Assembly (NCBI GenBank): GCA_049303795.1
Contig: JBAQNM010000005.1
Coordinates: 121,597 to 185,596, forward strand
Direction of reading: 5' to 3'
Length of the DNA stretch: 64,000 bases
Origin: Candidatus Moraniibacteriota bacterium
GTDB lineage: Bacteria > Patescibacteriota > Minisyncoccia > Moranbacterales > UBA2206
This document shows positions 273 to 24,198 of this stretch, one piece after another. The position numbers and the translations under genes are program-made. The first letter of the stretch is position 1. Each line of letters starts with the position of its first letter. The notes below the pieces were generated by a model. That model was not told the DNA's origin and ran no database searches. It saw nothing but the letters and a program-made list of their open reading frames with translations.

Positions 273-1349
273 TTATTTACCTACAAAAGTAGCAATAATC
301 ATATTGGGATCGAGTGGATTATATTTTAGCATATTGATTCCTTTTGTTAAATCAAACTGAGAAGTCGTCCAGGTTTTCCCATCATCAAGAGATTTATATG
401 TGGCTTGTAGTGCGCCATAAAAAATCTGCCTTGAATCAGCTGGATTGATTGCTAGGGCACCTATTGGAGAATTCGAGGGATTATTCAAAACAACAACTTT
501 TTCCCAAGTTTTTCCAGCATCTTTAGTACGGATAATTCCTTTTTTTCCAGCTAAATAAAGCCATCCTGTATGACTAGGATCTGCTTCTATAACACTAAAA
601 TCAGAACCAAACATACCCGTTGTGGTTAGATTACCCGTTAAACTGTCAAAAGAATTTCCACTATTTGAGCTATAAAAAATATCACCACTTTTTGTTAAAA
701 GATAAATCATATTACTATTAATAGAGTCGACAACGATTCTAGAAACTGCTGATTTTGCTTGAAAAATATTCTTCCAAGAAACGCCACCATCAACACTTTT
801 TATAAGTTGATTGTCACTTGTTGAGGCATAAACAACTCCAGTATTATGACCGTCAGTTACGAGATATATTATCATAGGACCTTTAGCGGCAAATGTATAG
901 ATTTCATCCCAGTTAGCACCGCCATCAACACTTTTAGCTATCTTACCTCTTCCTGCTAAAACTGCACTTGCATAAACAATATTAGTATCAACAGGATCAA
1001 GAGCTAAGCCATAAACACTCGCAGCTCCAAAATCAAGAAAATCCCAACTAGTACCACCATCAATTGTTTTTATAATTCCACCGGTCAAAAGTCCTGCGTA
1101 GGCAATATTAATATTCTTTTTATCAAAAACTAATCGATATGAATTAACATCTGAACTTTTAGGTTTATTATTACTAGTATTTGATGCCTGCCAAGTTTTT
1201 CCACCATCCCTGGAAAGCCAAAGACTCTTGGAAAATGTATACTTTTGGGAATCCATTGAGCTCGATGTTGAACCAGCCCCACCAAAAGTACAGCCAGCTA
1301 AAAATAACAATAAAAAAATTCCGATTGAAATAGTTAATTTATTCTTCAT
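273..1349 (-). CDS. BNR/Asp-box repeat beta-propeller lipoprotein (Ycf48/sialidase-like fold)
   Basis: N-terminal signal peptide with lipobox (LLFLAGC). Seven S-x-D-x-G-x-T/S-W motifs (SRDGGKTW, TIDGGTSW, SVDGGANW, SVDGGVSW, TKDAGKTW, SLDDGKTW) typical of BNR propellers. Confidence 0.6.
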   Translation of the reverse strand: MKNKLTISIGIFLLLFLAGCTFGGAGSTSSSMDSQKYTFSKSLWLSRDGGKTWQASNTSNNKPKSSDVNSYRLVFDKKNINIAYAGLLTGGIIKTIDGGTSWDFLDFGAASVYGLALDPVDTNIVYASAVLAGRGKIAKSVDGGANWDEIYTFAAKGPMIIYLVTDGHNTGVVYASTSDNQLIKSVDGGVSWKNIFQAKSAVSRIVVDSINSNMIYLLTKSGDIFYSSNSGNSFDSLTGNLTTTGMFGSDFSVIEADPSHTGWLYLAGKKGIIRTKDAGKTWEKVVVLNNPSNSPIGALAINPADSRQIFYGALQATYKSLDDGKTWTTSQFDLTKGINMLKYNPLDPNMIIATFVGK

Positions 1350-1447
1350 ATTTTTTATTATATACTATAAAACAAAAAAAATCCAATATGGACTTTTTTT
1401 GATAAAACATAGAAAACAACAATCTTTTTGAATTTTTAACAGCCACC

Positions 1448-1726
1448 CTATTCATCACTATCAAGATCTTCTGCCTGCTCCATTGCAAGTTTGTCTAATT
1501 CATCCTCAGCTTCTTTTTCTGCCTCATCCAAATCAGCGCAAATTTGTTCGATTTCAGCTATAGATTCATCAACTTCCGCAGTTGCCTCATCCATCTTTTT
1601 TCTAGCGTCTGCATTAACTTCGTCTATTTCATGATTAATTTCTTCCGCCTCCCCCACTAAATCATCAAGCTGCGCGTCTAAATCTTGAATGCTTTGACTA
1701 TTTATTGTGTTTTGATCTGTTTCCAT
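1448..1726 (-). CDS. small highly acidic coiled-coil protein, hypothetical
   Basis: 92-aa ORF, about 40% Asp/Glu, heptad-like pattern, no TM. It lies directly downstream of the 432-aa coiled-coil gene on the same strand. Confidence 0.4.
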   Translation of the reverse strand: METDQNTINSQSIQDLDAQLDDLVGEAEEINHEIDEVNADARKKMDEATAEVDESIAEIEQICADLDEAEKEAEDELDKLAMEQAEDLDSDE

Positions 1727-1748
1727 ATTTTTTAATTTTAAAAAATCT

Positions 1749-3047
1749 TTACTTTTTTTTAGACTTCATCTTCTCCTCAATAAACTTATCAATATTTTGA
1801 TTAAATTTATCTGCAGGCAATTTTTTATATTTAAGATATTTTCCAAAAATCTTTTTAAAGTCCTCAGCGTCCACTTGGCAAGCTTCCTTAAAAGTTGTTG
1901 CTTCGAGAAAATCAGCCTGATCGATAAGTCCGTCAGTAGCCTCTTTTTTGTATGTTTTTTTGAGCCACTTATTCCAGCTATCAATATAATCCCCAATCGT
2001 GCCTGCTTGTTCAACTTTTTCTTTTTTGGCAGTTTCTGCTGTCACCACTATCGGCGGAGTTTCTTCAATCACCTCTTCCGCGCTCGAACTTTCTTGTCTT
2101 GTATGTGATTTTATTTCTTCCCTCTTGCTAGATTCATTACCTTTTTTTCGCGCTTCTAAATCAATCTTTATTGGCCTACCTTCTTTCACGCGAATAAACT
2201 CTTCTCGCTTATCCCGATATGGATTAGCTTTTTCATCAACTTTGGCAACTTTTTTATCTATTTCCACTCTTTCTTTTGCAAGATATTCTTTTTCCACCCT
2301 TATTTTTTCGCGACCCTGAGCTATTAAACTCTCCAGCCTCATTATATTTTTATCCCTCTTGATTTCTTTTTCTGATTTTTTCTTCATTATCAAAATATTC
2401 TCTATTTTTGTCCTCTCTTCTTCATTGCTAGCCAATCTAGCTAATAACTCTTTGTGCCTTGCCTCTGTTACCACTGATCGCAGATCCACCAAATCCCTAC
2501 ATGCATTCAAACTTTCCGATCTTCTTTCCATTGGATCAAGTTTTTCGTTATAGCGACCAATCAACCTATCAGCAATTGCGTCTCTTCGGTTGACATGCAA
2601 TCCAGCTTTATGTTCTCGAGCTTCAAGCTTACTTTGAAGTCGATCTCTTTTATTAAATAATTTAGCTTTCTCCTCATCCACTTCTCTTAAATTTATCCGT
2701 AAAGATTCAATACTTTCTGACATTCCTTGTTTTTCCAAATTCACAATAAGATCCTCATTCTCTTTTTTTATTTGATCTTGAATAGCAATATCGGAGTCAA
2801 TGTCATCAATTTCATTCTTCAAAGAAACAGCTTTTCCTTCATGACTTTTCATCCGAGAGTTATTATAAGCAATTTCCATTTTTCCAACCATTCGACTTAC
2901 TCCAGGAATTTTATAGAGACCTTCATACATTCTCCTCAATACGCCTTTTGCGTTTTCAGGTGCTCTGTCTACTGTCTCTCTTGGTTTTGGGATCGGATTA
3001 TTTACTTCCGCTGACCCGGCTGGATTTGGTGTTTTTTCTGGTGACAT
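1749..3047 (-). CDS. charged coiled-coil protein, hypothetical
   Basis: 432-aa ORF rich in K/R/E with long predicted coiled-coil stretches. No TM, no recognisable catalytic motif. Confidence 0.5.
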   Translation of the reverse strand: MSPEKTPNPAGSAEVNNPIPKPRETVDRAPENAKGVLRRMYEGLYKIPGVSRMVGKMEIAYNNSRMKSHEGKAVSLKNEIDDIDSDIAIQDQIKKENEDLIVNLEKQGMSESIESLRINLREVDEEKAKLFNKRDRLQSKLEAREHKAGLHVNRRDAIADRLIGRYNEKLDPMERRSESLNACRDLVDLRSVVTEARHKELLARLASNEEERTKIENILIMKKKSEKEIKRDKNIMRLESLIAQGREKIRVEKEYLAKERVEIDKKVAKVDEKANPYRDKREEFIRVKEGRPIKIDLEARKKGNESSKREEIKSHTRQESSSAEEVIEETPPIVVTAETAKKEKVEQAGTIGDYIDSWNKWLKKTYKKEATDGLIDQADFLEATTFKEACQVDAEDFKKIFGKYLKYKKLPADKFNQNIDKFIEEKMKSKKK

Positions 3048-3224
3048 ATTTTTTATATTCTAAATTTTAAACTATTCCAAAAACTTAAATAAATTAATAT
3101 TATCCTTAAGACAACTTTATTGTATTATACAGCAACAAATAATGCAAGAGTGCGCAAAATAAAAAAGCGCCAAATATAATCAAGACGCTTCACTAACTTC
3201 CAGGATCCTTGTTTTTTGTAATTG

Positions 3225-3353: not shown

Positions 3354-3435
3354 GCAATTTTTAATTTTTAAAATAAAACCCGGATATAATCCTAACCAGA
3401 ATAAATAAACTAGCACCTATTTTTTTCTTTTTTTA

Positions 3436-4815
3436 TCAAACTTCTTTCCATGGAACATTTTTCCATTCCACGCCTTGTCTGCATAACAAATCTTCCGCTT
3501 TTTGTGGTTCCAGCATAATCTCTTCTATTATTTTTTCCATTCGCATTGCTTGCGAGCCTTTAACTAAAACCACATCACCTGCACGCAAGATTTTTTGTAA
3601 TTCCTTTCCGGCATCCATCGGATTTGAAAACTGATAGATTTCACCAATAAATTTGCGTCTTTTTAATTCACTAATGGCAAACTGCATTCTGCGACCTACG
3701 GCAATAAAAATATCACCCTTAATTTCTAAGAATTTTCTTGCTAGCAAAGTATGATCGGCTTCAGTATTTTCCCCCAACTCTAACATGTCACCCAAAGCAA
3801 CAATTTTGCGTTTGTCATTCCCCAGCTCGCGCAGAACCTCCAGAGCGGCTTCGGACGAATTGAGTGCGGAATTATATGTATCATCTATGATATGTGTGTG
3901 TTTAATTCCTGGGATCAAATTCAATCTTCCAGTGGGCGAGAAAAAATCATCTAAACCCTTTCCGATTTCCACTAGATTCATACCCAACCCAACACCAACA
4001 GAAATACCAGCCAACGCTGCATAAACATGTTGCTTGGCTAGCGCTCTATTTAAACGCATTGGCATTGTCGTGCCTTGATAGCTAAGCTTAAAACTTAATC
4101 CGTTAATTTCCTGTTCAACCGGACTATTTTGATTATTATGATAATTCAAAAAAACATCCAACGCTCGCACATCAGCATTTTCAGAAAAACCAAAAGATAA
4201 AACGTTTGATCGTAATTCTGTTTTTAATTTAGCCAGATACGCATTATCAATATTTATTACAGCTAAGCCTTTTTCATCTAAAGCTTTCACTAGGACTGCT
4301 TTTTCTTTTAGAATACCGTTTAGTGTTTTAAAATATTCAAGATGACTAGCTGATATTTCCGTAATGACAGAAATATTTGGTCGCACAAAATCAGTCAGAT
4401 ATTTTAAATCACCTGGCCTATCAGCTGCCATTTCTAAAATTAAAATTTCGGGATACTTAACTGGAAAAATGATAATACCTAGCCATTTCAAAGAAACCAA
4501 AAACCAACCTAGAAAAGATTTTCCGCCACCATCTATTCCGATTATTGTCAAAGGAACGCCAATTTCATTGTTATAATTTTTTTCGCTTTTTCTTATTCGG
4601 AAGTGCCCTGCAAGTACAGCTGTAATAGCTTCTTTGGCAGAAGTTTTTCCAACCGATCCAGTAATTGCCACGATGCGAGGCTTATATTTTCTAAGGATGG
4701 CGCTCGCCATAAAACGTAAAATACGCTCTAGTCGCTTCACCTTCTGAGATTTATTATTTTCCAAACTATTTTGATGGTTATCTTTTTTTATCTTTTTTTT
4801 CATCTTTTTCGTCAC
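3436..4815 (-). CDS. murF: Mur ligase family, UDP-MurNAc-pentapeptide synthetase (MurF-like)
   Basis: ITGSVGKTSAKEAI P-loop typical of MurF, Mur ligase middle and C-terminal domains, dcw neighbourhood next to ftsI. The Lys-rich N-terminal extension may not be translated; an alternative start is at MASAIL (about nt 4710). Confidence 0.65.
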   Translation of the reverse strand: MTKKMKKKIKKDNHQNSLENNKSQKVKRLERILRFMASAILRKYKPRIVAITGSVGKTSAKEAITAVLAGHFRIRKSEKNYNNEIGVPLTIIGIDGGGKSFLGWFLVSLKWLGIIIFPVKYPEILILEMAADRPGDLKYLTDFVRPNISVITEISASHLEYFKTLNGILKEKAVLVKALDEKGLAVINIDNAYLAKLKTELRSNVLSFGFSENADVRALDVFLNYHNNQNSPVEQEINGLSFKLSYQGTTMPMRLNRALAKQHVYAALAGISVGVGLGMNLVEIGKGLDDFFSPTGRLNLIPGIKHTHIIDDTYNSALNSSEAALEVLRELGNDKRKIVALGDMLELGENTEADHTLLARKFLEIKGDIFIAVGRRMQFAISELKRRKFIGEIYQFSNPMDAGKELQKILRAGDVVLVKGSQAMRMEKIIEEIMLEPQKAEDLLCRQGVEWKNVPWKEV

Positions 4816-6694
4816 TTTGAATAATTAAATTGTCCAATGGTTTATCTATTTCGATTTCTTCTTCTTTTTTTAGAAAATCATTTCTCAAGGTATGCGTTTG
4901 ATTAAATTTATCCCAAGCTACTTGTGAATACTCTTCCGTTGGCTCAATATTATAATAACCTAACAAAAATTTCATTAACTCTCCAAAAGTTGGCGCAGCA
5001 CTTGATTCTGCCCACTGAACAGTTTTAGGATCATCCAGACGGACCAATATTGTGAAACGAGGATTATCCGTTGGTGCAAAACCAGCAAAAGATCCAATGC
5101 TCTCTCCCTCAGTATAACCTTTAGCACTATTACTCGCCACCTGTGCTGTTCCAGTTTTTCCTCCAACCAAATAACCTGGCACATCTGCTTGTTTTCCGTG
5201 CCCTTCAACGACCACACTGCGAAGCATTTTTGCTACTTGCTTAGCAGAATCTTCAGAAATCACACGACGAACTTCTTGAGGAGCAACTTCTGTTTCTGTC
5301 CCATCAGCATGGATTACTTTTTCCACAATTTGTGGTTTTAGAAGAACGCCATTATTGGCAATAACATTATAAGCTGAGATTAATTGTAATGGCGTAACCG
5401 TGATACCCTGTCCAAATGAAGCTGTGAAAAATTGAATATCACTTTTTAAATTTTTTAAATTATTTAAATTTCCAGCCGCTTCTCCAAAAAAATCACTCCC
5501 GGTAGAATTACCAAAACCAAATTTTTTCACATATTCACCAAAAGTATAATTTCCCATTGATCTTTCTGCGAAAATTACACCTGTATTCAAAGACTTTTCA
5601 AGCACTTGAGTCATTGTTTGCAATCCATTAGATTTCAAATCAGAATTACGGATAGAATAACCTGCCTCAGATACAACTCCAGTATCAGTATAGGTTGTAT
5701 CAGGATTTATTTTCCCATTATCAATTGCTGCAGCCAAAGTAAATGTCTTAAACACGCTACCACATTCATAAGGATCGCTGACCGCTAAATTACGAAAAGC
5801 TTCCATATTATCTGTCTTGGCATATTCATTAGGATTAAAAGTCGGGTAATTAGCCATTGCCAAAATTTTTCCACTTGCTGCTTCCATTACAATTATCGTT
5901 CCTCTGTCAGCTTGATATTTTTCTACTGCCGCCTTTAACATTTTTTCTGTTTCATATTGAGCAATGTGATCAATAGACAGAATATAGCTGTCGCCATCTT
6001 TGGCATGTGTTATGGCTTTTTCTCCTGTAGCAATCCACTTTCCGGAAGTATCTTTATTTTGGAAAAGCTCTCCTTCTTGACCCTTTAACTCATTATCAAA
6101 AAGCAATTCCGTTCCATATCGCCCACCAAAATCATTATTTTTCCAACCTACGAAACCAAGAACATGCGCTGCTAATTCTCCGGCTGGATAGTAGCGCAAT
6201 GACTCATCTGAAAGATAAACTCCTTTTAATTTTAATTCTTTTATTTTGGTTGACTCGTCATCACTCAATCGATGTTTCAAAATTTCGTACATATCATCCT
6301 TTTTATTTAGCTTTTCAAAAAGCTCATCACGATCAATTGCTAGAATCTCGGATATTTTATCGCTAGCATCTTTCGGACTTTCAATTTCTTTCGGTACTGC
6401 ATAAGCCATACTAATTTCTTTATTAACAGCAACTGGATAAAGAGCATCCCTATCTTTTAAAAATATTTCTCCTCGATTAGGAATTAGATTTCTAAAAATG
6501 GAATGTTGATTTTCCGCCAAAGCTAAATAGGAGTCATGTGCGCTAACTTGCAATGAATACAAACGAAGAAATATTACTATAGAAACTCCAATTATCATAA
6601 CTAACAAAAAATAAATTCTAGAATTTTTCAATCTTTCGGGTAACTCACAACGACTACCAACTTTATATTTTTTTTGTCTTTGCGGATTTGCCAT
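4778..6694 (-). CDS. ftsI: class B penicillin-binding protein / peptidoglycan D,D-transpeptidase (FtsI/PBP2-like)
   Basis: N-terminal TM anchor, SVFK (SxxK) active-site serine motif, SxN-like and KTGTA motifs. Located between ftsL and murF. Confidence 0.8.
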   Translation of the reverse strand: MANPQRQKKYKVGSRCELPERLKNSRIYFLLVMIIGVSIVIFLRLYSLQVSAHDSYLALAENQHSIFRNLIPNRGEIFLKDRDALYPVAVNKEISMAYAVPKEIESPKDASDKISEILAIDRDELFEKLNKKDDMYEILKHRLSDDESTKIKELKLKGVYLSDESLRYYPAGELAAHVLGFVGWKNNDFGGRYGTELLFDNELKGQEGELFQNKDTSGKWIATGEKAITHAKDGDSYILSIDHIAQYETEKMLKAAVEKYQADRGTIIVMEAASGKILAMANYPTFNPNEYAKTDNMEAFRNLAVSDPYECGSVFKTFTLAAAIDNGKINPDTTYTDTGVVSEAGYSIRNSDLKSNGLQTMTQVLEKSLNTGVIFAERSMGNYTFGEYVKKFGFGNSTGSDFFGEAAGNLNNLKNLKSDIQFFTASFGQGITVTPLQLISAYNVIANNGVLLKPQIVEKVIHADGTETEVAPQEVRRVISEDSAKQVAKMLRSVVVEGHGKQADVPGYLVGGKTGTAQVASNSAKGYTEGESIGSFAGFAPTDNPRFTILVRLDDPKTVQWAESSAAPTFGELMKFLLGYYNIEPTEEYSQVAWDKFNQTHTLRNDFLKKEEEIEIDKPLDNLIIQSDEKDEKKDKKR

Positions 6695-17857: not shown

Positions 17858-18934
17858 TTACTTTGCTAATTCCTTTTCGATTAGTGATTTAAATTGATCA
17901 GAAGTAATCGCTCCACTTTGCACTTGATTGTTGATGAAAACACTTGGAGTTCCTGAAATTGCGAAATTATTAGCCTCATCAACATCTGCATTGATTTTAT
18001 CTTGATATTTCTTACTGTCCAAACATTGATTAAACTGATCTTGCTTCAAACCCAGATTTTTAGCATATCCTTTAAATTTAGCCACATCATTCTTATTTGA
18101 CCAACCAACTTGATCAGAATAAAGTTTATCAGCATATTCCCAAAACTTATCTTGTTCTAAAGCACAACTAGCAGCTAGGGCAGCGTCATTAGCTTGAGCA
18201 TGAGTGTCGAGTGGTAAAAATTTATAATCAAAATAAATATCATTACTGTCTTTATAATTTTTCATTGCGTCACGCAATACCGTGTGGAAAAGCTTGCAAT
18301 AAGGACACTGAAAATCAGAGAAAACAATCACTTTTACCTTAGCATCTTTGTTTGATCCAAAAATAGCATCATTATCACTGATTTTTGGCAATTCGACATA
18401 TTTTCCAACTGGAATTCCAATGTCTTGTGTGCGCAATATAAACTGACTATCTTTTTCTTCGAAAAGCACGTTAGCCTGAGCATAAAAATCTGTATTTTTA
18501 ATTTGTGAATCGAAAACAAAAGAAGGTAGGGTTTTTATATTAAAAGCTTGGATCAATTTTTTGCCTTCGTCGGAATTATAATCAACCTTAGTTGTTGCAA
18601 TTGTTGGCAATATCCTCCTCATCCAAACCAAAATCTCATCCACATCACATTCTTCACAACTTTCATCAGTTATAACTTTTGCACCGACTGCTGGCTCTCC
18701 ATATGCCACCCAAGTTTTCCCATTAGCTTCAAAAATATCAGACTGATTTAATTTTTTAGCAGAAAAACCATCTTTTCTTATTAACTGAGACAAGTCAATA
18801 AAAAGACTGCCCAAAAGCATGCCGGACAATAAAATGATAACGGAAATTAAATTCTTTATTCTATTATCATTATTCTTATCATTATTCTTATTCTTCATTG
18901 CATCATCCTCCCCTGTTTTAATATCTTCTTCCAT
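17858..18934 (-). CDS. membrane-anchored DsbA-like thiol:disulfide oxidoreductase (thioredoxin fold, CPYC)
   Basis: N-terminal TM anchor and FSDFQCPYCKLFH active-site motif of the DsbA/BdbD family. Confidence 0.75.
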   Translation of the reverse strand: MEEDIKTGEDDAMKNKNNDKNNDNRIKNLISVIILLSGMLLGSLFIDLSQLIRKDGFSAKKLNQSDIFEANGKTWVAYGEPAVGAKVITDESCEECDVDEILVWMRRILPTIATTKVDYNSDEGKKLIQAFNIKTLPSFVFDSQIKNTDFYAQANVLFEEKDSQFILRTQDIGIPVGKYVELPKISDNDAIFGSNKDAKVKVIVFSDFQCPYCKLFHTVLRDAMKNYKDSNDIYFDYKFLPLDTHAQANDAALAASCALEQDKFWEYADKLYSDQVGWSNKNDVAKFKGYAKNLGLKQDQFNQCLDSKKYQDKINADVDEANNFAISGTPSVFINNQVQSGAITSDQFKSLIEKELAK

Positions 18935-18970
18935 AAAATTAGTTATTGCTAATTATTTAAAATTTATTAA

Positions 18971-19483
18971 TTAATCTTGCGGTTGATTGCTTTCAATATT
19001 CTGACTATTTTGCTTGCCATCATCAACTGCCGAATCAATCTCCTCATCAGAGTTGACAGCTTCATCTTGCATTTGTGTAGAGGCACTTCTCGTTTTAGTT
19101 AAATCAGCTTGTATCTTATTCATGTCGTAGCTTTGAGACTTTATCTTCATTAAATAATCGTTATAACCAATTGTTATTTTCTTTAATGATTCAGTTTTAA
19201 AAGCAACCCCAATTAAAATTCCTAGAATAAAAATCATTATCAAGCGCGAACGAAATTCTTTTTTAGTTTTTTTAGCAATTGCTTCATTGTCCATTTCTTC
19301 TGAAAATTGAGATTCATCTATTAAAATAACTCCTTCATTATTTTCTTTAATAGGATCGTTTACAACTTCGCCAGACTGAACAGATTCAATTTTATCAGTT
19401 AAATCTTCCTCATCTTTTTCTTCGACAACCGCCTCTTCTAATATTTCCTTCCATTCTTCTTTTTCTCTTGTATACTCTCTCAT
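18971..19483 (-). CDS. hypothetical single-pass membrane protein with acidic N-terminus
   Basis: 170-aa ORF with one TM helix (LIMIFILGILIGVAF) and acidic flanks. No recognisable domain. Confidence 0.4.
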   Translation of the reverse strand: MREYTREKEEWKEILEEAVVEEKDEEDLTDKIESVQSGEVVNDPIKENNEGVILIDESQFSEEMDNEAIAKKTKKEFRSRLIMIFILGILIGVAFKTESLKKITIGYNDYLMKIKSQSYDMNKIQADLTKTRSASTQMQDEAVNSDEEIDSAVDDGKQNSQNIESNQPQD

Positions 19484-19628: not shown

Positions 19629-19656
19629 TTGAAAAAATTTACTTTACTGCTATAAT
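19629..19656 (+). promoter_or_regulatory. sigma70-like promoter (TTGAAA - 16 nt - TATAAT) giving a probable leaderless transcript of the SpoIID-domain gene
   Basis: The TATAAT ends 7 nt before the ATG at 19664 and there is no Shine-Dalgarno sequence. Confidence 0.4.
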
Positions 19657-19663
19657 ATATTCA

Positions 19664-21109
19664 ATGATAAAAATAGAAAAAAAATTAAAATATTCTAAAA
19701 TAGCTATCTTTCTTTTAGTTGTTTTCTTGTTCGCTACTTTCGCTTCCAATTCTGCCAATAATGCTAAGGCTGAAGATAATGATGCTGACTATGACGCTTA
19801 TAAAAAATATGAGCTTTATTTGAAATATCAAAAAAAACAGAACTACGAAAAATACGAAAAGTATAAAAAATATAAGAAGAAATATGGCTTCAAGAGCTCC
19901 TCTGAAAGAGCTAAGGCTAAGGAGGCCTATGACAAGTACAAACTTTACAAAAAAAGTCCTTCAAAATATCCAACCTATAAACAGTATTACGATCAATATA
20001 AGAAATATTCAAAATATAAAAAATACTATTCACCATACAAACAATATAGTCGCTATGGAAAATACGAAAAATATAATAAAAGTGAATATGACGCTGGAAA
20101 AAATTATGGTGGAAATGAATACAAAGAAGCGCATGCCCGCTATCTTAACAGCCAAGAAAACGGAGGTTTAGGTGAAGCTACTCTCGGAGGCGGAGCTCTG
20201 GGGCCAGATATTGCAGTTGGCATCTATAACTACACGAAATCAGATCTTCGAGATGAAACTTATATTCGAGTAAAAGCAACTAAGGACTACACCGTTAAAA
20301 ATGAATCTGGACAAGTATTGGCCAATATTCCAAAAGACACTTATACGCGCGTTCAATATATTTCAGATGGAGATTTGAAAGTTTATGAATCAATGGATGA
20401 GGTTAACGCTGGATCAGATGTTTATTTTGAATCAACCGATGGAAATAATTCTGATATTGTTTTTGACTTAAATCGTCCTTCTTCTGATTATGATCAGTAT
20501 CGTGGAAAAATAAAAGCCCATTTTTATGATAGTCCCGAAAGCGATGGCGATCGAATCTGGGTAATCAACACCCTTCCTTTGGAGCATTATGCTTGGGGAA
20601 TTGGAGAAATTACCGGAACCGGTGATACAGATTACAATAAAACAATGACTACCATGTTTCGCACTTATGGCTATTGGAAACTTCGCTGGAGCACGCAATA
20701 TATTCCACAAGGCTTTGTTGTTGTAAGTACACCTTCCAATCAAATCTATAATGGATACGATTGGGAAACAGCTCATCCTAATATAAAATCAGCTGCCGAA
20801 GACACCCAAGGGAAAATAATGATGTATGGCAGTGAAATCGCTCTTTCTCCTTATTCATCCTGGACCGATGGCCGAACAAGAAGTTTTGAAGAACGTTGGG
20901 GCTCAACACTCTATCCTTGGTGTCGATCAGTTAGCGATTCCTATGGAAAACATGCCACAAAAAGTACCGCTGAGTTAGAAGCTGAGGGAAATCATATGGT
21001 TGGTCTCAGCGCTCATGGCGCATTAGCCCTCGCCACTGATCATGGCTACAATTGGGAAAATATTCTAAGATATTATTTCTACAAAGTTAGATTCTTAAAA
21101 GCGTACTAA
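19664..21109 (+). CDS. secreted SpoIID/LytB-domain protein with N-terminal Lys/Tyr-rich low-complexity region
   Basis: Signal peptide, then about 100 aa of K/Y-rich low complexity (KYEKYKKYKKKYG...). The C-terminal region has SpoIID-like motifs (NQIYNGYD..., KIMMYGSEIALSPYSSWTDGRTRSFEERWGS). Confidence 0.6.
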   Translation: MIKIEKKLKYSKIAIFLLVVFLFATFASNSANNAKAEDNDADYDAYKKYELYLKYQKKQNYEKYEKYKKYKKKYGFKSSSERAKAKEAYDKYKLYKKSPSKYPTYKQYYDQYKKYSKYKKYYSPYKQYSRYGKYEKYNKSEYDAGKNYGGNEYKEAHARYLNSQENGGLGEATLGGGALGPDIAVGIYNYTKSDLRDETYIRVKATKDYTVKNESGQVLANIPKDTYTRVQYISDGDLKVYESMDEVNAGSDVYFESTDGNNSDIVFDLNRPSSDYDQYRGKIKAHFYDSPESDGDRIWVINTLPLEHYAWGIGEITGTGDTDYNKTMTTMFRTYGYWKLRWSTQYIPQGFVVVSTPSNQIYNGYDWETAHPNIKSAAEDTQGKIMMYGSEIALSPYSSWTDGRTRSFEERWGSTLYPWCRSVSDSYGKHATKSTAELEAEGNHMVGLSAHGALALATDHGYNWENILRYYFYKVRFLKAY

Positions 21110-21113
21110 AAAT

Positions 21114-21692
21114 ATGAAAAAGAGTCTTAAGATATTTATTTATATTTTCGCTTTGGCTCTTATTAGCTTAGCTATTTTTATTGGATTGATAGCTAAAAAT
21201 CGCTATTATGATAAACCTGAACCAGAAAAAAATCCAACGGAAAAAATTCTTTTTCAAGGAGAAAAAACTGAGAATAAAGACACAAATCCAAATGACACCC
21301 CGGGAGAATTTCTAGATCCGGAAGACAAAGAGGAAGACTTGGAAGAAGAAATGCAGTTAGAGAAAGACTTTGCTGAAAACAATACAGTTGAAAAAGAATC
21401 CTACTTGGAAATAAAAAAGGATGACTGTAAAAATAAATGTGCTGATTTTAAAGATGAAAAAGCTGATTTTCGTTATTGCCAAGAAGTCTGTGGTCTCGTT
21501 GAGCCTAAAAAAGAATCCTCCTCAGAGGAATGTGAAGATTTAGAAGACTTGGAAATGGATTATTGTTTGCGAGATTTTGCAATCTCTAAAAAGGACTATG
21601 AGCTTTGCGAAAAAATTGAAGATAAAAACATAAGTCTGAATTGTCAGAATCGCATCACAGAAGAAATCCTAGAAGAGCAGAAGAAATTATAA
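21114..21692 (+). CDS. membrane-anchored acidic Cys-rich protein, hypothetical
   Basis: N-terminal TM helix, acidic linker, eight Cys in four pairs (CKNKC, CQEVC, Cx10C, Cx11C). Confidence 0.45.
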   Translation: MKKSLKIFIYIFALALISLAIFIGLIAKNRYYDKPEPEKNPTEKILFQGEKTENKDTNPNDTPGEFLDPEDKEEDLEEEMQLEKDFAENNTVEKESYLEIKKDDCKNKCADFKDEKADFRYCQEVCGLVEPKKESSSEECEDLEDLEMDYCLRDFAISKKDYELCEKIEDKNISLNCQNRITEEILEEQKKL

Positions 21693-21704
21693 TAGAAAAG
21701 CATT

Positions 21705-22958
21705 CTATTCTTTTCTTAGTGCTTCCATAGGACTTAATTGTGAGGCTTTGCGAGCAGGCCAATAACCAAAAATCATTCCCGTTCCGGCGGAAAAGCCCAG
21801 GCCGATTGTAGCTGACCACCAAGTGATGGGAAATTTTAAATTGAAACCATAGCTCACGGCGATTATTTCTCCGAGTTTGGAAATTCCAAAACCCAGTGCC
21901 AATCCGATAATCCCACCCAATAGTGTGATGAAAATTGCCTCAAAAAGAAACTGAAAAAGAATCTGCGAATTTTTCGCGCCGATTGATTTCTTTAGCCCAA
22001 TCTCAAATGTTCGTTCCGTCACTGAGACATACATCACATTCATAATCCCCACCCCTCCGACAATAAGTGAGATAGAAGTAAGCGCAATAAGAAGCAAATT
22101 AACTGAGAAAAAAACTTTATTTAGAATTTCCAAAACTTCCACGATTGAATTGACGGCAAAATCATCGTCGTCGGGATTTTCAATGTCATGCTGTACGCGA
22201 AGCACATCAATTGCCTCAGCAATAGTTAAATCTAATTTACTCATATCTTTAACATTAAAAATTGCCATTTGCAAATAATCAATTCCGGCTAATTTTTTCT
22301 GAACCGTGCGAAGCGGAATATAGGTTATTTGATCAAAATTAAAAGGCCCGGCTGCGCCTCTTTCTTTCAAAACTCCAATCACGCGATAAGTTTGACCCTT
22401 TATCTTCACCTCTTTTCCTACCGCCTCACCATCACCAAAAAAATCTTTTTTTGTTTCCGAACCCAATACCACAACCTGCCGGAGACTCTTATCATCATCC
22501 TCGCTAAACATCATCCCTTTTTCTATTTCTGTTTTTTTATCGACATCCGTCACGCTGGCTGTCGTGCCCATAATAATCACTTGTTTATTTTTATTCTCAT
22601 ATTTTATCACTTGTTGATTCATAATTGCAGCATACCAAGCTCCGACATTGGAAAGTTTGGCCACCGCCTCCATATCTTCCAATTTCAAAGTAGTGATTTG
22701 CATTCCACCCATTTGTCCACTGGCATTCTGGGTGGAAGTTTTGGAAACTTTCGGCACCTTAATTTCAATTTCAATAATGTCCGAGCCAAAAGAAGAAACC
22801 TGATCAACTAAAAAGCCTTTGACTCCTGAGCCAAAAGACAAAACTAAAATCACACTCACCACACCAATTACAATTCCCAGAAGCGACAAAAACGTCCGCC
22901 CTAAATTATTATGGATACTTTTGAAAGCTAATTTGATTGGAACTAAAAAATTATTCAT
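21705..22958 (-). CDS. ABC transporter permease, FtsX/MacB family
   Basis: 417 aa with an N-terminal TM, a large extracytoplasmic domain and three C-terminal TM helices (FtsX fold). Paralogue of the adjacent permease; 8-nt overlap. Confidence 0.8.
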   Translation of the reverse strand: MNNFLVPIKLAFKSIHNNLGRTFLSLLGIVIGVVSVILVLSFGSGVKGFLVDQVSSFGSDIIEIEIKVPKVSKTSTQNASGQMGGMQITTLKLEDMEAVAKLSNVGAWYAAIMNQQVIKYENKNKQVIIMGTTASVTDVDKKTEIEKGMMFSEDDDKSLRQVVVLGSETKKDFFGDGEAVGKEVKIKGQTYRVIGVLKERGAAGPFNFDQITYIPLRTVQKKLAGIDYLQMAIFNVKDMSKLDLTIAEAIDVLRVQHDIENPDDDDFAVNSIVEVLEILNKVFFSVNLLLIALTSISLIVGGVGIMNVMYVSVTERTFEIGLKKSIGAKNSQILFQFLFEAIFITLLGGIIGLALGFGISKLGEIIAVSYGFNLKFPITWWSATIGLGFSAGTGMIFGYWPARKASQLSPMEALRKE

Positions 22959-24198
22959 ATCTTAATGCTTCCATCGGACTAATCCTTGAAGCTTTTCCCG
23001 CAGGATAAATACCAAAAATTATTCCAATTGCAAAGGAAACTCCAATAGCTGCCACAATTGATTGCCAAGAAATTATAAAAGGCCAAACATATTGCAATGA
23101 TTGAATGATAATTGCCGTTAAGCCAGAAATCGCAATACCAATAATAATCCCGATTATTCCACCCAAAAAAGAAATAAAAGCTGATTCAATTAGAAATTGC
23201 GTCCAAACATCAGTGTTTTTTGCGCCAACTGCCTTTCGCAGTCCCACTTCCCTAATTCTTTGATTGACTGCCAAAAGCATTATGTTCATAATCCCCACTC
23301 CACCAACAATCAAAGAAATTGTTCCAATGGCTAACAAGAAATATCGAAGCACATCCGTTACTTGCTTAATTATCTCCACGGCTGAAGCCATGTCACGCAC
23401 AGAAAAATCATCATTCGCCGGATCATCAATGTCATGTTGTTCCCTAAGTGTTCGGGTGATATTTTCTTTGGCTAAAGAAATAAGGCTGGCATCTCTAACT
23501 TTAAGACGAATAAATCCTAAATGATCAATACCTAGAAGAATTTTTTGGGCAGTTTTCAAAGGAACAAAAATTGTATCGTCTTGGCTATTAACCCCAAAAC
23601 CAGATGAACCTCTTTTTTCCAAAACACCAATCACCGTAAAATTCTGATCCTTAATTTTTATCACCTTATTAAGTGGATTGTCTCCATCAAAAAGATCCTT
23701 TTTTAAATTAAACCCGATCACGACCTCACGCGACATATTAGTTTCTTCGTCTTCAGAGAAAAATCTACCCTCAGCTACTTTCGTATTTTCCACATCAATA
23801 TAACTGGCCGTTGCTCCCTGAAAAGAGGCCACGATATTTGTTCCGTCATACTCAGCTGTAGCGGTTCCTGAAACATAGCCAGCGCCAGCTGTCACTTCCG
23901 GCACATCCTTTCCATTTCGTAAAACTTCCAAATCATCATATTTCAAAGTTGTAATTGAAATTCCCATCGCAGTCGCTGGCGGGCCATTTTCATCTGACGC
24001 TCCCGGTAAAACACCGATTAAATTTGAACCAATGCCCGTAATTTGATCCAGAATCAATGCCTGCGCCGATTGCCCAATCGCCATAATAATAATCACCGAG
24101 GCCACCCCAATTATTATTCCTAGCATGGTCAAAAAAGAGCGAAACTTCGCCGCTAAGAGATACTTTAGAGAAATTTTAATAGGAGAAATTATGTGCAT
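22951..24198 (-). CDS. ABC transporter permease, FtsX/MacB family
   Basis: 415 aa, same topology as the adjacent permease and clear sequence similarity to it (e.g. shared MEALR C-terminus). Confidence 0.8.
   Translation of the reverse strand: MHIISPIKISLKYLLAAKFRSFLTMLGIIIGVASVIIIMAIGQSAQALILDQITGIGSNLIGVLPGASDENGPPATAMGISITTLKYDDLEVLRNGKDVPEVTAGAGYVSGTATAEYDGTNIVASFQGATASYIDVENTKVAEGRFFSEDEETNMSREVVIGFNLKKDLFDGDNPLNKVIKIKDQNFTVIGVLEKRGSSGFGVNSQDDTIFVPLKTAQKILLGIDHLGFIRLKVRDASLISLAKENITRTLREQHDIDDPANDDFSVRDMASAVEIIKQVTDVLRYFLLAIGTISLIVGGVGIMNIMLLAVNQRIREVGLRKAVGAKNTDVWTQFLIESAFISFLGGIIGIIIGIAISGLTAIIIQSLQYVWPFIISWQSIVAAIGVSFAIGIIFGIYPAGKASRISPMEALRYE

Follow-up and report, generated by a model that had tools for sequence, protein, structure and literature searches.

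In a 64,000-nt stretch of DNA from a Candidatus Moraniibacteriota bacterium (contig JBAQNM010000005.1, positions 121,597 to 185,596; hereafter the window), the plus-strand gene at 19664–21109 encodes a putative secreted SpoIID-type lytic transglycosylase whose N-terminal part is exceptionally rich in lysine and tyrosine. An earlier note on the same DNA had described this part, at 19787–20115, as a low-complexity region. That description holds for its composition but not for its nature, since the tract is conserved position by position and is predicted to fold. It appears to be an autonomous folded helical domain of about 125 residues (the K/Y module), and we propose, with a probability of about one half, that it serves as a targeting (address) module which binds polymers of the cell envelope on behalf of the enzyme. 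The gene and the predicted parts of its product are as follows.

19664–21109, plus strand: enzyme gene, encoding a secreted 481-aa protein of the SpoIID family with a K/Y module (open reading frame (ORF) and homologs)
19664–19771, plus strand: signal peptide, residues 1–36, with predicted cleavage between AKA and ED (read from the sequence)
19778–20152, plus strand: K/Y module, residues 39–163 (five predicted helices, conservation, substitution rates and AlphaFold2 (AF2) model)
20153–20203, plus strand: Gly-rich linker, residues 164–180 (no predicted secondary structure; confidence dips to 67 at residues 161–170 on the predicted local distance difference test (pLDDT))
20204–20563, plus strand: beta-rich middle domain, residues 181–300, between the tract and the core
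20564–21106, plus strand: SpoIID-type lytic-transglycosylase core, residues 301–481
20606–20608, plus strand: GAA codon for E315, the predicted catalytic glutamate, invariant in 71 sequences

The segment 19787–20115 corresponds to residues 42–151 of the 481-aa protein, and the peptide quoted from it in the earlier note is correct. It contains 31 lysines (28%) and 29 tyrosines (26%), with Ser, Glu, Asp, Ala, Gln, Gly or Asn making up another 45%; the reported K/Y enrichment is thus real, although "almost exclusively K and Y" overstates it. The 49 other window ORFs of at least 120 aa have 9.8% K and 3.2% Y (about 13% together), and against this background a stretch of 110 residues would contain 60 or more K+Y with a binomial probability of about 4e-25. 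The richest 110-aa stretch of the tract holds 61 such residues, versus 27 in the next-richest stretch of the window. Successive tyrosines stand exactly 3 positions apart in 20 of 31 intervals. Consistent with this spacing, the spectrum of aromatic residues has a sole peak, at period 3.0, which was reached by 35 of 20,000 shuffles; the tract gives no signal at 3.5–3.6 and no heptad periodicity. Net charge amounts to +21 across residues 42–151 and to -12 across residues 170–481.

The signal peptide that the earlier note placed before the tract is borne out as a signal-peptide-like N-terminus: its n-region is rich in K, its hydrophobic core spans 15 residues and the AKA site comes after residue 36; AxA-type motifs stand at the equivalent place in homologs. 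AF2 assigns pLDDT values below 50 to residues 1–10 and 23–39. The first in-frame Met after M1 is M245, so the tract cannot be bypassed through a later start. This and the conservation of the signal peptide among homologs rule out a downstream alternative start, which had already been considered unlikely. Some homologs (P0110, P0112, P0115, P0119 and P0126) have a Pro/Thr/Glu-rich spacer of roughly 100–150 residues after the signal peptide and before the K/Y module; such spacers recall the wall-spanning regions of Gram-positive surface proteins.

A homology search returned 364 relatives, the named ones belonging to Candidatus Moranbacteria or Patescibacteria. The tract is present and in register in all of the 120 best homologs, which share with it the motifs YQKYELYLKY, KYGF, KYKLYKKNP and YKKYxKYKKYVxPYxKYSxYxKYKKY. 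An alignment of 71 sequences shows conservation of 90% or more at 17 aromatic positions of residues 39–163, with Y115 invariant. Tract length is exactly 126 residues in all close homologs, and two frequent indels each delete one 3-residue unit (residues 58–60 and 140–142). The ratio of nonsynonymous to synonymous substitution (dN/dS), calculated relative to the closest homolog (88% identical in protein, dS about 0.9), is 0.032 in the tract; the catalytic core has a value of 0.056 and the beta domain one of 0.09. The tract has the lowest of the three and is under strong purifying selection. The earlier note had named absence or high variability in close relatives as grounds for refutation, but the tract is in register in all 120 best homologs and in 50 of 80 species-level loci.

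Conserved Tyr and Lys positions are often encoded by different synonymous codons in different homologs. This feature, and the synonymous divergence of about 0.9 that separates the tract from its closest counterpart, rule out a recent microsatellite-type expansion. Judging from its codons, the tract is old and is maintained at the protein level rather than generated by replication slippage. Tandem Repeats Finder detected three period-9 arrays of about three copies each and one two-copy period-21 repeat. An internal duplication of the module was also considered and rejected, as alignment of its first half to its second with hhalign gave a probability of 18%.

When modeled alone with AF2, the module adopts a five-helix hairpin-like arrangement with a pLDDT of 96.8 and a predicted template modeling score (pTM) of 0.81. 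In the full-length model the tract helices retain pLDDT values of about 95–98. The predicted helices span residues 39–74, 79–97, 103–137, 140–145 and 151–163, with conserved turns (KYGF, NP and P124) between them. The longest ones comprise about 35 residues and would measure roughly 50 angstroms. In alpha-helical geometry, a period of 3.0 makes the aromatics point all round each helix (mean resultant 0.19–0.35), suggesting that many of the conserved tyrosines should be exposed to solvent, interleaved with lysines. Scanned against Pfam at E values up to 10, neither the full protein nor the tract by itself gave more than a chance match to Cucumo_2B (E = 0.29); a profile search of the PDB returned nothing for the tract region, and LysM, SH3b, SPOR, PG_binding_1, CW_binding_1/2 and SLH showed no sequence match to it. 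We found no paper on a Tyr/Lys-rich wall-binding module in the literature. With no Pfam family, no solved relative and no published account found, the K/Y module appears to be previously undescribed.

The module is not confined to SpoIID-type enzymes. An exhaustive HMMER search of 1.84 billion cluster representatives with a tract-only profile identified 11 proteins, and the same type of profile run against a word-indexed database of 5.8 billion proteins found a single fragment. The 11 matches comprise SpoIID-family members and fragments and, in addition, three secreted S8 proteases. These three subtilases combine a Fervidolysin-type prodomain with Peptidase_S8, and one of them also has CHB_HEX_C_1 directly before the module. 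In all three the K/Y module lies at the extreme C-terminus, following a Pro/Glu/Thr-rich or low-complexity spacer, and ends at profile position 123–125. For two of them, a check showed the gene to be complete and to lie inside its contig. Within the range of this search, the module is lineage-restricted, occurring in the Moranbacteria/Patescibacteria family and in three S8 proteases only, and it is portable between enzymes of the SpoIID and S8 types.

One locus (L007) carries both arrangements. An S8 protease gene with a C-terminal K/Y module (1128–3116) is followed, after 260 bp, by a SpoIID-family gene (3375–4883) whose K/Y module is N-terminal. The two modules are 84% identical overall at the DNA level and share a near-identical core of about 155 nt between diverged flanks, a pattern that indicates recent copying or transfer, or gene conversion, between the two genes.

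To survey the family at the species level, one genome was retained per species, yielding 80 loci, and all ORFs were screened with hidden Markov models. Nearly all of these loci are labeled Moranbacteria, Moraniibacteriota or Patescibacteria. Many metagenome-assembled genomes annotated by third parties (those of L013, L019, L020, L029, L032, L033, L036, L042, L054, L060 and others) bear the titles "uncultured Bdellovibrionales", "Micavibrio sp." or "Candidatus Saccharibacteria"; on a gene pair of Moranbacteria type, such titles are probably taxonomic mislabels from an automated pipeline. The K/Y module is found in register in 50 of the 80 loci. The other 30 are more distant members that keep the catalytic core; their N-terminal slot is occupied by F5/8-type-C (galactose-binding-like) domains, by FG-GAP-like repeats or by repeats of DUF5648, which has been described as a propeller of three blades that takes part in glycan recognition (bioRxiv 10.1101/2025.01.06.631476). 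By analogy with these orthologs, the K/Y module is in a slot that the enzyme family uses for exchangeable, binding-type modules.

This equivalence is the main argument for a targeting role and makes surface or wall attachment, one of the functions put forward in the earlier note, the best supported of those considered. We envisage that, once the signal peptide has been cleaved, the module would form a long helical hairpin-like rod. With a tyrosine at every third position, the rod would present Tyr and Lys side chains on all its faces and could bind, in a multivalent manner, an anionic or glycan polymer in the envelope of the bacterium itself or of a host cell, for example the glycan strands of peptidoglycan or a wall-associated acidic polymer. 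Lysines would provide electrostatic contacts, and exposed tyrosines would stack on sugars (CH-pi) or engage in cation-pi contacts; we infer both ligand and chemistry from the sequence. The catalytic domain would thereby be held on its substrate and oriented toward it, and in some genomes an S8 protease with the same tag would be retained there too.

Several points weigh against this proposal. The equivalence of the slot is an argument by analogy, and the ligand is suggested by comparison only. The structure is a prediction in which exposure of the Tyr side chains is deduced from periodicity alone, and long basic helices can score high pLDDT values without real rigidity. No known wall-binding domain family matched the module in the Pfam scans and, to our knowledge, the envelope of Moranbacteria has not been characterized experimentally. 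Finally, a conserved, membrane-anchored acidic protein (net charge -21) offers an alternative, proteinaceous ligand.

This acidic protein is the product of the gene that follows the enzyme gene.

21114–21692, plus strand: partner gene, 192 aa, starting 4 nt past the stop codon of the enzyme gene

Such an arrangement suggests that the two genes are co-transcribed. The partner has an N-terminal transmembrane helix, an acidic linker (net charge -16) and a domain with 8 invariant cysteines. In 49 of the 50 K/Y loci and 21 of the 30 non-K/Y loci it is found directly downstream of the enzyme gene on the same strand; in 4 of the 9 non-K/Y exceptions the available downstream sequence (about 600 nt at most) is insufficient to contain it. 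No relative was found in Pfam or the PDB. SpoIIIAH and DUF4834 were considered for the Cys-rich domain and set aside, as they matched weakly, in few members, and the matches look compositional. The enzyme and partner genes appear, on this evidence, to constitute an undescribed two-gene cassette of Moranbacteria.

The presence of the partner raises the possibility that the module is a docking or regulatory coiled coil, which either binds the acidic membrane protein or blocks the enzyme's own active site until the partner relieves the block. The architecture has a parallel in RipA/Cg1735, where the hydrolase is autoinhibited by its N-terminal coiled coil until a conserved transmembrane protein lifts the block (PMC9897464). 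Adjacency of the membrane partner gene and the complementary charges of module and partner fit such a scheme, as do the more acidic linker of the partner in K/Y loci and a raw charge correlation between tract and partner (rho = -0.54). However, the correlation vanishes in 23 independent sister pairs (rho = -0.05), orthologs without the hairpin still keep the partner, and the module is also found on proteases in loci that have no partner. Nor does the tract show the heptad periodicity of a coiled coil. We regard docking as the main rival of the targeting proposal, possible though doubtful. If it were to occur, the pair would provide a new example of hydrolase control.

A variant of the targeting proposal concerns the envelope that is being addressed. 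The module could be a common address tag by which episymbiotic candidate phyla radiation (CPR) bacteria deliver the lytic transglycosylase and the S8 protease to a host cell's envelope instead of their own. We consider this unlikely; if true, the module would be a new class of domain, a polycationic helical hairpin with tyrosine at a strict period of 3, and would belong to the equipment that Moranbacteria use for attack or attachment.

It is more improbable that the module is a passive stalk, a rigid rod that sets the distance of the catalytic domain from the membrane or the wall and whose composition plays no part in binding. The length of the predicted helices would suit this function, and some homologs indeed add Pro/Thr/Glu-rich spacers of about 100 residues before the module. 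Yet a spacer would need neither some 17 conserved tyrosines nor a dN/dS of 0.03, and cleavage at the predicted AxA site would detach the protein from the membrane. On an S8 protease, where it forms the extreme C-terminus, the module has nothing to space, and the domains that take its place in orthologs are globular and of binding type, not further rods. The remaining alternative, also raised in the earlier note, holds that the tyrosines are converted to 3,4-dihydroxyphenylalanine (DOPA) or dityrosine in mussel-like adhesion or Tyr/Lys-mediated polymerization; it draws on a composition like that of Tyr/Lys-rich adhesive and coat proteins and on the precedent of Tyr-rich CotC/CotU, which form high-mass assemblies, and of dityrosine cross-links in spore coats (PMC7944565), but is very hard to reconcile with a tract that is predicted to be an ordered helical domain (pLDDT about 97) rather than disordered, whose fixed length, strict positional conservation and low dN/dS are unlike those of adhesive repeat proteins, which at the DNA level shows no decapeptide-type tandem repeat, only the short period-9 and period-21 arrays, and to which no tyrosinase, peroxidase or laccase gene is linked in any of five loci with inspected gene calls.

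As for the enzyme itself, the earlier note had placed a SpoIID domain after the tract, and both profile and fold searches support this assignment. The window protein gives no Pfam hit, including PF08486, and scores 56.3 bits with TIGR02669, below the cut-off of 83.3. Since many orthologs pass PF08486, the sub-threshold score reflects divergence and not absence of the domain. The protein shows the SpoIID catalytic-domain fold, and in the alignment E315 falls on the glutamate of the GEM/SEM motif of SpoIID. The corresponding residue in Clostridioides difficile SpoIID, E101, is catalytic and essential for activity (PMC6221140). We conclude from these comparisons that the window protein belongs, as a divergent member, to the SpoIID/LytB family, with E315 as its predicted catalytic glutamate. 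The beta-rich domain at residues 181–300 has no clear relatives as judged from a fold search with its AF2 model. We found no paper linking SpoIID with Patescibacteria.

A candidate promoter precedes the enzyme gene.

19629–19656, plus strand: sigma-70-like promoter, TTGAAA, 16-nt spacer and TG-extended TATAAT; 11 of 12 consensus matches, the best site of the region, by consensus match only

The promoter ends 7 nt from the ATG at 19664, with no Shine-Dalgarno sequence visible; this short distance suggests that the enzyme transcript is leaderless or near-leaderless. As noted previously, the enzyme and partner genes are the only two plausible genes on the plus strand of the 64-kb window, as other plus-strand ORFs of at least 120 aa lie inside minus-strand genes; the remaining non-shadow ORFs of this size, throughout positions 1–64000, are all on the minus strand. 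GC skew is uniformly negative across the window, turning positive only at 20001–22000, over both plus-strand genes. Upstream, on the minus strand (17858–19483), are genes for a membrane-anchored DsbA-like thioredoxin and a 170-aa acidic transmembrane protein; downstream, also on the minus strand (21705–24198), are two MacB/FtsX-type permease genes. The DsbA-like gene may be relevant, lying as it does beside a secreted partner with 8 cysteines. A functional link of the cassette to the DsbA-like and MacB/FtsX genes was rejected, however, because the arrangement is common only to the closest relatives (L089 and L090) and not to L001, L003 or L005. Wider neighborhoods are otherwise unrelated between loci.

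Patescibacteria account for a large share of bacterial diversity, and almost nothing is known about how they position secreted enzymes on their own envelopes or on those of their hosts. The present analysis defines a lineage-specific, portable domain on an enzyme of a gene pair conserved across Moranbacteria. Should the module bind a wall polymer, it would represent a new type of cell-wall-binding domain, usable in engineered lysins or for surface display. It would also offer an unusual structural case, that of alpha-helices coated with tyrosine at period 3.

Comparison with known systems sets the window protein apart in several ways. Unlike the SpoIID/LytB proteins of Bacillus anthracis (4RWR) and C. 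difficile (5I1T), it falls below the Pfam and TIGRFAM cut-offs and has a shorter core, and the Cys/His zinc site of the C. difficile protein is absent at the aligned positions. Sporulation SpoIID has no N-terminal K/Y module, beta domain or Cys-rich partner gene, all of which are found here; moreover, the source organism does not sporulate, making the SpoIIP/SpoIIM context inapplicable. Mussel foot proteins and CotC/CotU have high contents of Tyr plus Lys, and the likeness of the module to them is limited to this compositional comparison. The adhesive proteins of mussels lack order and require DOPA, and proteins of both kinds are disordered or assembly-prone and dependent on Tyr oxidation, whereas the module is predicted to be folded, fixed in length, conserved by position and fused to an enzyme. 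The N-terminal coiled coils of RipA/Cg1735, RipC, PcsB and EnvC differ from it as well, since the module has no heptad and an extreme K/Y composition and is also found C-terminally on proteases; the partner dependence of the RipA/Cg1735 type contrasts with the persistence of the partner here in orthologs lacking the hairpin. Single alpha-helix (ER/K) domains require alternating runs of Glu and Lys/Arg and consist of one isolated helix without tertiary contacts. The tract, with 7 Glu versus 31 Lys, five predicted helices, conserved turns and a pTM of 0.81, is excluded from that class. From known wall-binding modules the K/Y module differs in being, by prediction, all-helical, polycationic and Tyr-periodic, with no family match. 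Like the accessory parts of modular cell-wall hydrolases, among them the cell-wall-binding domains of the endolysin type and the DUF5648 and F5/8-type-C modules of this enzyme family, it sits in a swappable slot, and it moves between enzymes. A secreted hydrolase joined to an exchangeable accessory module follows a well-known logic, while the polycationic helical design with a tyrosine at every third residue is unusual.
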